Positions 20,460-55,805 are shown, counted from the first letter of the stretch. The stretch: DNA of 64,000 nucleotides from an uncultured Acidobacteriota bacterium (GCA_963796275.1 CAWCKY010000007.1:800001-864000), one strand, 5' to 3'. Made by a program: numbers and translations. The notes: a model not told the origin generated them from the letters alone.

Positions 20460-22002
20460 TTGTCTAAGTCTTTTGAGACCGTCATCATTCTCGATTTTGG
20501 ATCCCAGTACACACAACTCATCGCCCGGCGCATCCGGGAACTGGGAGTCTATTGCGAAATTCATCCATTTGATACGCCGATAACACTCATACGTCGACAG
20601 AACCCCATGGGGGTAATTCTATCCGGCGGTCCCAGCTCGATTTATGAGGAGGGGGCTCCTCATTGCGATCCGGGGATTTTAGACCTCGGAAAACCGATCC
20701 TGGGTGTTTGTTATGGGCTCCAGCATCTTAGCTATTTCCTGGGTGGAAAAGTCGAGCCGTCGTCGCGACGAGAATACGGCGCAGCTACGGTCAGATTGAC
20801 GTCCGGGAGTTTGCTGCTGTCGGGATTACCCGATGAGTTTCCCGTCTGGATGAGCCACGGAGATCACGTCACCGTGGCCCCCCCGGGCTTTCGAGTTATC
20901 GCCGAGACCGAGAATGCCCTTGGCGCTATAGAAAATGTCGAGCGGCGTCTCTACGGTTTACAATTCCACCCCGAAGTTGCCCATACACCTGACGGCAAAA
21001 ATATCCTCAACAATTTCGTTCGTCGAATCTGTGGATGTTCCGGTGACTGGTCCGCCTCAACCTTCATCGATGCGGCAGTAGATAAGTATCTCAGAACAGA
21101 TAGGCGATGGAAAAGCGGTCTGCGGCCTCTCGGGGGGTGTCGATTCAGCGGTAGCCGCCGCCCTCGTCGCCCGGGCGATAGGAGACAGGTTGACCTGCCT
21201 CTTCGTCGACAATGGTCTTTTACGTAAGAATGAATTCGCGAAGGTGTTGGAGTCTTTCGACGATTACGGAAGTTTGAATGTCAAAGGGGTGGCAGCGGGA
21301 GAGCGGTTTCTGACGGCGTTGATTGGAGAAGCGGATCCCGAACGCAAGCGAAAGATCATTGGTCGCGAGTTTATTGAAGTTTTTCAGGATGAAGCCGCTA
21401 AACTTGGGAGAATCGATTTCCTTGTGCAAGGGACGCTTTATCCTGATGTGATCGAGTCGCAGTCGGTGAAGGGGCCATCGGCAGTGATCAAGTCTCATCA
21501 TAATGTGGGCGGCCTCCCCGAAAAAATGCATCTGCGCCTGGTCGAGCCGCTCCGCGAACTGTTTAAAGATGAGGTGCGCAATGTAGGTCGAGAATTGGGG
21601 CTCACTACAACGCTGATCGACCGGCAACCTTTCCCCGGTCCCGGACTGGCAGTGAGAATTCTCGGCCCCGTGGATGAAGCCAAAATCTATTTGCTCCAAG
21701 AGTCCGATAATATCGTGGAAGAAGAGATTACCCGGGCGGGGCTCTATCATAAGTTGTGGCAATCGTTTGCCGTACTCCTTCCCATCCATACGGTCGGGGT
21801 AATGGGAGATCAGAGGACGTATGAGCAGGTGATCGCGATCAGAGCCGTCGAAAGCCTCGATGGAATGACTGCTAACTTCGCGAGGCTGCCCTACGATGTC
21901 CTTGAGAAAATCAGTAGCCGAATCGTAAGCGAAGTTAAAGGTATTAACCGAGTAGTCTACGATATCAGTTCCAAACCTCCCAGCACAATCGAGTGGGAGT
22001 AG
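20460..22002 (+). CDS. guaA: GMP synthase (glutamine-hydrolysing); one +1 frameshift near 21087 in this assembly
   Basis: LDFGSQY, GVCYG and QFHPEV are in one frame; [14 protein letters not shown] and TIEWE in the next. Removing one base gives 513 aa. Confidence 0.95.
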
Positions 22003-22157
22003 TCGCAGTGAATTGCTGGAGGAACCCTTCCAGATTAAACGCTTAAATACTATGATTTAAGATAAATGCAGCGGATCGGGAATAGATTAAGCGTTAGGTT
22101 TAAGCTTGCGGCAACCAGGCAAGCACTTGTATTAAATGTCTGCTTATATGTGTCTAC

Positions 22158-25100
22158 TTGCTTATGGATCGTAATAAACAATTTGTTCATCTTCATTTGC
22201 ACACCGATTACAGTCTGCTGGATGGCGCGATAAAGATAGCTCCTCTGGCCAAGCGCGCAGCGGAGCTCAAGATGCCTGCAGTTGCGATCACCGATCACGG
22301 AAATCTTTACGGCGCGCTCTCCTTCTATAACAAGATGCAAGCGGAAGGGGTCAAACCTATTATCGGGATCGAGGCCTATATATCCCGCGGCAGCCGGCAT
22401 GAGAAAGGAGCCACGGACCTGCAACCCGGCGAGCGGGCGACCAACCATATAGTTTTAATGGCTAAGGATCTGAAGGGATATCATAATCTCGCAAAACTCT
22501 CCTCATTCTCCTATATCGAAGGATTTTGGAGAAAACCGAGAATCGACCGCGAATTGTTAGCTCAACATAGCGAAGGACTCATAGGGCTTTCAGCCTGCAT
22601 AAGCGGTGTTCCCCCTTCATTGCTGCTGAGAGACAAGTTCGATGAGGCTGCCAGGGCATCGCTCGAGTTTCAGGATATTTTAGGTGAAGGCAACTATTAC
22701 CTCGAAATTCAAGAGCACGGGTTGGATGCGCAGAAGCGGATTCGCAAGCCGATGGTGGAACTATCTAAAAAAACCGGTATCCCGCTGGTCGCCACCAACG
22801 ACTCGCATTACTTGATGGCGAGCGATGTGAAAGCTCACGACACGCTGCTCTGTATAGGAACCGGCAAGACGATCAACGATCCCAACCGCCTGACATATGG
22901 TTCACCGAACTATTATTTCCGCAGCGCTGACGAGATGTGGGAGACCTTCGGCGAAGAGCCTGACCTCTTACTGCGGACGCTGGAGATAGCCGAGAAATGT
23001 CAGTTGGAATTTCCTAAAACAATAGACCAGGTTCCGCTCTATCCGGTCCCGGATGGATACACGGTCGATAGTTATTTTGAAAAAGTATCGCGCGATGGAT
23101 TTCAACAGCGCCTGAATGAGGTCTGGCAACCGCTGCAGATGACATCATCACTGCGCAACCCTCTCAACAAATACCAGGATCGCCTCACGCACGAAATTGA
23201 GACGATTAAAAGGATGGGGTATTCGGGCTACTTCCTGATCGTCTGGGATTTTATCCGCTACGCGAAAAGTAAAGGTATTCCGGTCGGACCGGGGAGAGGG
23301 TCGGCGGCCGGGAGCCTCGTAGCCTACTGCCTTAATATTACAGATGTCGATCCGCTCCAATATGACCTGCTTTTTGAACGGTTTCTCAATCCCGAAAGGG
23401 TCACCATGCCCGATATCGACGTCGATTTCTGCGTCCGGGGCCGCGCGGATGTGATCAACTATGTGAGCGATCTCTATGGCAGACAGAATGTCGCACAGAT
23501 CATTACTTTCGGTACGATGGCCTCCAGGGCGGTTATCAAGGACGTCGGAAGAGCTCTGGAGATGCCCTACTCAGAAGTCGAAAAGGTCGCCAAAATGATC
23601 CCACCCCCTGTGCGCGGCCGGAATGTCTCGATCGATGATGCCATTAAGCAGAATCCAGATTTAAAGCAAATTATCGAAAATGATGAGCAAGTATCTGAAC
23701 TCGTTGAAGTTGCGCGCAAATTGGAGGGGTGCGCCAGACATTCATCGGTGCATGCCGCCGGAGTTGTGATCTCACCTAAGCCAATTTATGAACTGGTGCC
23801 TGTTTGTAAGAGTCAAAATGATGAGCTGACAACTCAGTTTGTCATGTCCGATCTTGAGAAGACGGGAATGCTCAAGATGGACTTTCTGGGGCTCACAACG
23901 CTTACGATCATAGAGGACTGCCTGAGATCAATCGAGCGTGAAACTGGTAAACGACCCGACCTGACACAGATCGCGCTTAACGATGAGAAGGCGCTCAAGC
24001 TGTTTGCCGATGGGCTCCTGAATGCCGTTTTCCAGTTTGAAAGCTCGGGCATGGTGGAGATATGCCGGAAGCTAAAACCTGAGGGTCTGGAGGACCTCTC
24101 TGCCCTCAACGCGCTATACCGTCCGGGCCCGCTCGACGGCGGGATGGTCGATGATTACATTGACCGCCGCCACGGAAGGAAGAAGGTTCATTACATAGTG
24201 CCGCAGATGCGCGAGATTCTCGAGAATACCTATGGCATCCTGGTATATCAGGAACAGATCATGCAGCTTGCTCAAAAACTTGCCGGATATTCTCTCGGTG
24301 AAGCCGACCTGATGCGGCGCGCAATGGGAAAGAAGAAGAAAGAGGAGATGGCGCTCCACCAAGAGAAATTCGTGTCGGGAGCGGTTGAGCGTCAGATTCC
24401 TGAAGAAAAAGCGAGGCACATCTTCACACTAATGGCTCAATTCGCGGATTATGGCTTCAATCGCTCACACTCATTCGCTTACGCCTATCTCGCATATCAG
24501 ACTTCTTACCTTAAAGCCCACTACCCGACCCATTTTTACGCCGCAGTTCTCTCCAATGAAATCGCCAATACCGAGAAAGTTGCGAGATATGTGAGCGAGA
24601 TGAAGGCATTCAATATTCTTTTGCTTCCACCGGACATCAATTCCAGCCATGAAGGCTTTACCCCGGTCGGGGACGCTATCCGCTTCGGCCTGGCTGCCAT
24701 AAAAGGGCTCGGTTCGACGGCTGTTAATCTGATCGTACAAGCGAGAACGGATGGGGGAAGTTTTCGTTCCATCTACGATTTTGCGGAGCGAGTCGAACAG
24801 AAGGCCGTAAATAAACGAGTTCTCGAATCCTTGACCAAGGCGGGCGCCTTCGACTCGGTCCACCCGCACCGCTCGTCGTTGATGCCTGTTCTGGATCGAG
24901 CGATCGATTATGGCGCCAAGGCGCAGAGGGACAAAAACTCCGGGCAGGGAGGACTCTTCGCGTTATCGGGCGATTCGCCCGGCTCGGTATCCGATGAGCC
25001 TCCGATTCCGGACCGGCAGCCCTGGAGCAGGAAGGAATCGCTGGCTTACGAGAAAGAGGCGCTCGGCTTTTATGTCAGCGGCCATCCGCTGGAAGAGTAC

Positions 25101-54717: not shown

Positions 54718-54919
54718 ACGTAAGAAGTTGATTATAATTCCTATAACTTCAGTCTGATAACGAGCACGTAGAACACGTGATAAATAACGAGGTCGACAGA
54801 AATGATTGTCGACGGAAAAGATTCAAGCGGGATGGCTCGAAGGCCGAACAGATCGACCTGATTTTTCGGTTGCCAGCGCTTATTGCCAAGAATACGGACA
54901 TAACAGATGCAGTGAGGGT

Positions 54920-55805
54920 ATGAAAGACAGCGAATTGATTGAAGAGTTTATATCAACTTTAAGAGTTGAAAAAGGGGCTTCTGACAACACGGTGCAATCC
55001 TACCGCAACGATCTGAAAAAGCTATCGGCCGCGGTATCAGCTAGTGGAAAAAGCCTACTGACCATGGATCGCGGCGATCTTCTATCCGTCATTATCATTT
55101 TGAAACAGGATGACATGAGCGACGCGAGCATAGCCAGATTCATCTCGGTCGTCAGGGGACTCTTTAAATTCGTGGTAAGCGAAGGATTCAGCAAAAACGA
55201 TCCGACCGCTCATTTCAATGTACGAAAAGCATGGCAAACGCTACCACGGTTCTTAAATCAGGAAGAGGTGGAAACAATACTCAGCAAACCCGATCTGGAG
55301 ACGGATGCCGGCATACGCGATCGAGCGATGCTGGAACTGCTCTATGCAACTGGGGTGCGCGTTTCGGAGCTGATCGGGCTGAAGATGAAGGACGTCGACT
55401 GGGATACCGGTCTATTGACCTGTCTCGGGAAGGGCAGCAAACAAAGACGCATTCCTATCGGACGTTCCGCATTACATTATCTGAAAACGTATTTGCCTGT
55501 GAGGAAGCGGCTGATGGGTGATCGCCATTCCGATCTGCTATTCGTCGAAGAGCAGGGAAGAAGAGTCACAAGACAGAAGTTTTGGAAGATAATCAAGACT
55601 TACGGCAAAATGGCGAATATCGAATATATTACGCCTCACATGCTGCGCCACAGTTTCGCCACGGCTCTGCTCTCCAACGGCGCCGATTTGAGTATCCGTT
55701 CAGATGATGCTGGGACACAGCGATATCAGTACAACCCAGATCTATACGCACGTGACTGATGATCATCTAAAGTCCGCATACAGAAAATTTCACCCTCGCT
55801 CCTGA
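54920..55805 (+). CDS. xerD: Tyrosine recombinase XerD; +1 frameshift at 55693 in this assembly
   Basis: [35 protein letters not shown]. Removing T55693 gives [25 protein letters not shown]...HPRS*. Confidence 0.93.

Follow-up and report, generated by a model that had tools for sequence, protein, structure and literature searches.

Four frameshifted genes in an uncultured acidobacterium very likely reflect consensus errors at a probably modified RGATCY motif

Results

The stretch of DNA analysed here, 64,000 nucleotides from an uncultured Acidobacteriota bacterium (GCA_963796275.1 CAWCKY010000007.1:800001-864000; hereafter the window, with positions counted from its first letter), carries four genes that are each interrupted by a one-base frameshift: guaA, which encodes GMP synthase, a parA/soj-type ATPase gene, a conserved hypothetical gene of 690 amino acids (aa), and a gene for a xerD-like tyrosine recombinase (Table 1). 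The original prediction, made from the sequence alone, had placed an AGNATCY word at each of these interruptions; all four words are present, and every one of them marks a genuine +1 shift within a single gene. Pfam matches continue from one frame into the other in guaA, where GATase falls in 20382-21086 and GMP_synt_C together with an ATP-PPase-like region in 21088-22002; in parA, where positions 3-35 of the AAA_31 profile match before the break and positions 38-177 after it; and in the xerD-like gene, where Phage_integrase is matched at positions 2-147 before the break and 150-171 after it.

Neither half of the 690-aa gene matched a Pfam profile, and its continuity is drawn from homologues. 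The C-terminal part matched 1045 proteins in a large protein collection. The best-scoring homologues are for the most part undivided proteins of about 680-690 aa, and some of them are named from Bryobacteraceae; the protein alignment sets the junction at ...KAMPTD/LSYLREG... with no residues missing. A search of 20 relatives of the genome did not recover this C-terminal part. The gene had initially been called PHP-like, a label that the analysis left unconfirmed, its sole support being an Atlas lead that points weakly towards metallohydrolases of the CehA/McbA type (score 0.79). The gene belongs to a widespread family of 680-690-aa proteins without a Pfam domain.

The extra base can be placed with differing precision within the four words. 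In parA it is one of two adjacent As, such that AG[A]ATCT and AGA[A]TCT are indistinguishable, and in guaA and the 690-aa gene it is placed by protein alignment to within a few bases. Each word becomes AGATCT or AGATCC once the extra base is removed, and both are forms of RGATCY (R, purine; Y, pyrimidine), of which the window holds 35 intact copies versus the 4 broken ones; the AGATCT at 55738, cited from the outset as an intact copy, is among those present. A suitable 7-mer falls within an 11-nucleotide span with a chance of about 0.019, and the coincidence of four breaks out of four with such words is therefore not a matter of chance. No further frameshifts were found in the window.

Table 1. 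Interrupted genes and their AGNATCY words in the window, and CATG zones elsewhere in the genome (G000)
Feature	Position	Strand	Description
guaA (GMP synthase)	20382..22002	+	One gene in two frames, break at 21087; Pfam
AGTATCT in guaA	21085..21091	+	AGATCT with extra T after AG
parA/soj-type ATPase	32169..32928	+	One gene in two frames, break at 32275/32276; Pfam
AGAATCT in parA	32273..32279	+	AGATCT with extra A (either of two As)
690-aa conserved hypothetical gene	40099..42202	-	Broken at 40645; homologues and alignment
AGTATCT in 690-aa gene	40643..40649	+ (AGATACT on gene strand)	AGATCT with one extra base
xerD-like tyrosine recombinase	54806..55805	+	One gene in two frames, break at 55693; Pfam
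AGTATCC in xerD-like gene	55691..55697	+	AGATCC with extra T after AG
CATG zone L035	G000 C1:712356-713604
CATG zone L037	G000 C3:292610-293570
CATG zone L040	G000 C2:656857-658063
CATG zone L041	G000 C1:177305-178649
CATG zone L043	G000 C2:782431-783355

Comparison with short-read data, proposed in the original prediction as a check on these sites, revealed that the extra base is absent at the two of the four that could be compared, 21087 and 32275. Three data sets were aligned to the stretch 21000-40900: a set of short-read soil contigs that appear to come from the same strain (X1), with 22 of its 26 aligned pieces matching the window at 99% or more, and two relatives at 90-95% likeness that are not the same organism (X2 and X3). 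The word depth of X1 is about 1-3, and the short-read comparison is informative only where X1 covers the window; in a search of public runs, the best run held at most 0.16 of the sampled words. Over guaA, one X1 contig spanning 21000-21211 differs from the window by no other letter and by one gap (211 versus 212 letters), which is located only to that interval. In parA, another X1 piece stops aligning at 32275 and continues as AGATCT without the extra A, and both X2 and X3 leave out one base at the same position. Two same-genus genomes that are about 70-80% identical to this one at the DNA level (G001 and G002) likewise lack one base relative to the window in guaA, in parA and in xerD; for xerD the missing base lies precisely between G and A, and one of the two genomes has an intact AGATCC there.

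The genome that holds the window (G000) comprises 9.46 Mb in 7 contigs at 54% G+C and is 94.7% complete; a contig number this low for so large a soil genome suggests that the assembly was made from long reads. A first genome-wide test, which considered the overlap zones of long open frames without a coding model, was too noisy, with AGNATCT found 44 times versus 26 expected, AGNATCC found 22 times versus 22, and none of the 7-mers surviving multiple testing. It was replaced by a detector based on a 3-periodic fifth-order Markov model trained on long open frames, with which each same-strand frame pair was scored and the best switch point taken. High-scoring frame switches that imply an extra base outnumbered those that imply a missing base (182 versus 66, p 1e-13), and 46 of the 182 carried, within 12 nucleotides on either side of the switch, a 7-mer that turns into RGATCY upon deletion of one internal base, versus 7.1% at random positions (p 3e-14). 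The YGATCR, RGATCR and YGATCY variants lay near background in the same test, and an unbiased count of hexamers at the switch points placed AGATCC/GGATCT first, with 15 occurrences versus 1.3 expected.

A site-centred test, in which each site of the form RG[N]ATCY or RGAT[N]CY was scored for a frame shift, confirmed that motif-specific breaks occur genome-wide, as had been anticipated from the window. At a log-likelihood ratio (LLR) above 8, a cut-off used in place of LLR >=22, which left too few sites, 153 of 16727 such sites scored as broken versus 444 of 77990 GATC sites with other flanks (Fisher p 7e-7). The four window sites themselves score 4.0, -1.5, 14.5 and -1.5, low values explained by the closeness of two of the breaks to the ends of their genes, and we therefore measured sensitivity by simulation: insertions placed at 1500 intact sites were detected at LLR>8 in 58% of cases. 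An excess of 58 sites at this sensitivity corresponds to an estimated 100 or so events (80-150 depending on the threshold), which is about 2% of the approximately 5560 RGATCY copies in the genome.

The enrichment is found only at the G^A step of the motif, equivalent to T^C when the opposite strand is read, with the other steps at background. Resolved by flanking bases, it reaches 2.0x at both AG^ATCT and GG^ATCT, 1.35x at AG^ATCC and 1.0x at GG^ATCC, versus 0.7-1.2x at the other 12 flank pairs of GATC. The original prediction had named AGATCY as the motif and a modification of GATC as the cause; the enrichment of AG^ATCT agrees with the former, but AGATCY proves too narrow, as the affected motif is RG^ATCY on either strand and includes GG^ATCT to an equal degree, and the absence of enrichment at the 12 remaining flank pairs argues against GATC in general. 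The inserted base is most enriched when it is G (3.0x), followed by T (2.2x), A (1.3x) and C (0.9x). Events occur in both orientations relative to the gene (77 and 68) and are not clustered by contig or orientation, with 51 neighbouring pairs in the same orientation versus 54 in different ones.

Zones with a missing base also carry RGATCY-class words (13 of 66, versus 6.3% at random), and GGGATC in particular was found at 7 missing-base switches versus 1.1 expected. RGATCY thus attracts indels of both signs.

Breaks at RGATCY-class sites interrupt recognizable genes elsewhere in the genome. We ran Pfam on both halves of the 15 best-scoring RGATCY-class zones, from which one duplicate had been dropped, and found in 8 of the 15 that one domain or well-known gene is split at such a site: four TonB-type outer-membrane barrels, a nonribosomal peptide synthetase (NRPS) condensation domain, gyrB, uvrC and a hybrid histidine kinase. 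Three more zones were suggestive and four were uninformative, with no usable domain, while two complete separate genes at the break were seen in none of the 15. A cell in which gyrB, uvrC and guaA were broken together would be unlikely to survive, which argues for errors rather than lesions.

Two sites in NRPS condensation domains (G000 C6:210355 and C6:213557) lie 3.2 kb apart with the same GGGATCT break in an identical 30-nucleotide context, and they represent either a repeated module that suffered the same error twice or a repeat that was collapsed or copied in the assembly.

Analysis of the extra-base switches also revealed a second hotspot at CATG, which lies at 41 of the 182 switch points versus 10.8 expected; with RGATCY-class zones set aside it is still present in 39 of the 182, versus 6.7% at random (p 9e-11). 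Among ten CATG zones examined with Pfam, five have a domain split right at CATG (ROK, coaBC, COX1, UPF0182 and BrkB), and one is broken but offset from the CATG word; of the other four, two are suggestive and two uninformative. Alignment of CATG zones to relatives confirmed one extra base, with several deletions fitting equally well. Taken with the behavior of RGATCY, these results suggest that CATG is probably a second modified motif.

In the 91 high-scoring extra-base zones that contain neither RGATCY nor CATG, ACGCGC/GCGCGT occurs 13 times at the switch points versus 2.9 expected (p 1e-5) and may be a third error motif.

The genome avoids both of the motifs at which its reading frames break. 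The ratio of observed to expected counts is 0.47 for AGATCT, 0.63 for AGATCC, 0.68 for GGATCT and 0.81 for GGATCC, which rank 1, 2, 4 and 23, respectively, by under-representation among the 4096 hexamers. Among 4-mer palindromes, only CTAG, a word that is commonly rare, is more depleted than CATG (0.64). With CTAG set aside, the two words at which the frames break are thus the palindromes that the genome avoids most. Avoidance of palindromes is the usual trace of restriction pressure, BstYI cuts R^GATCY and NlaIII recognises CATG; the avoidance of RGATCY and CATG would imply that the lineage carries the matching protective methylation. CAGCTG (0.64) and CTCGAG (0.71) come next among the avoided palindromes.

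The enzymes responsible for a modification had been expected to lie outside the window, and candidates are indeed found elsewhere in the genome, which encodes four amino-methyltransferases of the beta class (PF01555) and two type I HsdM proteins. The closest solved relatives of the PF01555 enzymes are M.RsrI, M.MboIIA and CcrM. One of the four (L001), encoded beside ligA, has M.RsrI as its closest solved relative and carries an SPPY motif, which is more typical of N4-cytosine enzymes, and two further small PF01555 enzymes (L002 and L003) are similar to it. No methylase of the Dam family (PF02086) was found in the genome, in a search whose controls matched in 6 genomes; this result and the 0.7-1.2x values at the 12 flank pairs outside R..Y speak against Dam-type methylation of GATC. 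No C5 methylase was found either.

The fourth PF01555 gene (L004, G000 C4:1598786-1602088) is large, stands beside a DUF6079 gene and looks like part of a defence island. It is itself split into two frames at about 415-440, near a CGATCT word, in a break of the missing-base type.

Discussion

The absence of the extra base from short-read contigs and from relatives, together with the interruption of essential genes genome-wide, indicates that the breaks are artefacts rather than pseudogenes, as the original prediction had proposed, and we are highly confident that the four frameshifts in the window are errors of the assembly consensus and not lesions in the organism's DNA. Consensus artefacts of long reads at specific motifs are of a kind already known. 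As to their cause, we infer a modification at RGATCY and consider it a likely source of the errors, a link that we draw because the motif matches a known methylation and restriction specificity and because the genome avoids it. A modified base would distort the adjacent read signal, such that the basecaller or polisher adds a base that enters the consensus in some copies; about 2% of RGATCY sites would thereby gain a single base, usually G, T or A, between G and A, and CATG would behave alike. The mark is probably N6-methyladenine (m6A) or N4-methylcytosine (m4C) and not a phosphorothioate, and it would sit at the A or at the C of RGATCY, respectively; the two fit equally well because the affected step precedes the A when one strand is read and the C when the opposite strand is read. 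We infer both this chemistry and the enzyme responsible, which would be one of the genome's beta-class amino-methyltransferases.

Several observations weigh against attributing the errors to modification. None of the PF01555 methyltransferases can be assigned to RGATCY from its sequence, and nucleases of the BglII and BamHI families (PF09195 and PF02923) were unmatched in searches that were silent in all 14 control genomes too and are hence uninformative. The errors at methylated motifs described in excerpts of a report on Nanopore assemblies are mainly substitutions, not insertions (PMC12392509). Short-read evidence covers two of the four window sites (55693 lies outside the aligned stretch), it comes from the thin X1 coverage described above, and X1 might be the assembly's own source sample and hence not independent. 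The window itself holds 4 events versus about 0.7 expected per 64 kb (P about 0.007), an excess that we attribute to the way striking windows get flagged. Lastly, only about 2% of RGATCY sites are hit, at a rate that depends on the 3' context (ATCT above ATCC), and pure sequence-context bias could give the same pattern.

Such a bias, in which the basecaller or polisher would miscount a base at RGATCY and CATG whatever their modification state, is the main rival explanation, and both the low fraction of affected sites and its dependence on context speak for it, as does the enrichment of RGATCY among missing-base zones. We nonetheless judge it unlikely, since the errors require purine and pyrimidine flanks that match a known methyltransferase and restriction specificity, as excerpted from its description (PMC10287943), and do not affect GATC generally, and since the two error motifs coincide with the palindromes that the genome most avoids. 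A variant in which modification acts through more unusual chemistry, with two active marks (RGATCY and CATG) in a Bryobacteraceae-like acidobacterium and at least one of them non-standard, being bulkier or in the backbone, would account for an inserted base at a fixed step in place of the usual substitution; we regard it as doubtful.

Real mutations or strain polymorphisms, arising for example from error-prone repair of cuts or nicks that a restriction enzyme makes at R^GATCY and leaving true pseudogenes, would agree with events that are site-specific at a restriction-type motif avoided by the genome, and X1 could come from a slightly different strain. This explanation is very unlikely, as it would require survival with gyrB, uvrC, guaA, coaBC and COX1 all broken in one genome, and the X1 contig over guaA differs by one gap alone and relatives lack the extra base. 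Phosphorothioation at GpsATC, a known motif of Dnd systems and one of the marks proposed in the original prediction, would fit the exact position of the extra base, the G-A linkage within GATC being the one affected in those systems. We give it hardly any credence: neither DndC (TIGR03183) nor DndD (TIGR03185) had a match at E<=0.001 in the 94.7%-complete genome, the G^A step is by symmetry also the T^C step and the linkage is thus not singled out, and methyltransferases account better for the R and Y flanks and for CATG as a second motif, both of which a Dnd system leaves unexplained. Programmed +1 ribosomal frameshifting or another form of recoding at AGNATCY could be read from the window, where all four events are +1 and share a common word, and its probability is now close to nil. 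It is refuted by the absence of the extra base from relatives (G001 and G002) and from short-read contigs; in addition, the 690-aa gene has homologues that each form one uninterrupted frame, the word may lie on either strand with respect to the gene (on the opposite strand in the case of the minus-strand 690-aa gene, and in both orientations genome-wide), and the inserted base varies.

Modification at RGATCY, the explanation that we prefer, would have precedents. According to excerpts of the respective reports, RGATCY is an m6A motif with a restriction partner of the BglII/BstYI family in Acinetobacter baumannii A118 (PMC10287943), and it carries m6A, at the A, in the soil Gemmatimonadetes Gemmatirosa kalamazoonensis (PMC3974934). 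The motif described here resembles these systems, as far as the excerpts describe them, in being the same degenerate six-base palindrome and in its avoidance by the genome; unlike the A118 system, it has no methylase assigned to it, and our nuclease searches, with their silent controls, gave no match. In Nanopore R10.4.1 assemblies, errors at methylation motifs affect only some copies of a motif, as reported in part of that study (PMC12392509). The errors in this genome share with those, as excerpted, a short palindrome of which some copies are hit, the breaking of genes and absence from short reads, and they differ in being one-base insertions at the fixed G^A step where substitutions predominate in the excerpted account.

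Our findings indicate that guaA, parA, xerD and the 690-aa gene are to be treated as intact in annotation, and likewise about 100 further genes, gyrB, uvrC and coaBC among them. Automatic pipelines would label such genes as pseudogenes and thereby lower the apparent quality of the genome, and the list of affected sites can be used for motif-aware polishing. As a method, the combination of a motif-specific indel footprint with avoidance of the same motif can indicate likely methylation motifs from an assembly alone. The new biology is limited to the likely methylation of RGATCY and CATG in an acidobacterium from soil.

Two further candidate frameshifts in the window were examined and rejected. 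The candidate at 6702-6853 (within 6227-7052, minus strand) is a STAS anti-sigma antagonist gene followed by a gene for an RsbW-like kinase, a true gene pair, and the candidate at 58162-58241 (within 57537-58773, minus strand) is an extracytoplasmic function (ECF) sigma factor gene followed by a probable anti-sigma gene, also a true pair. In both cases the neighbouring genes overlap in different frames and so mimic a frameshift.

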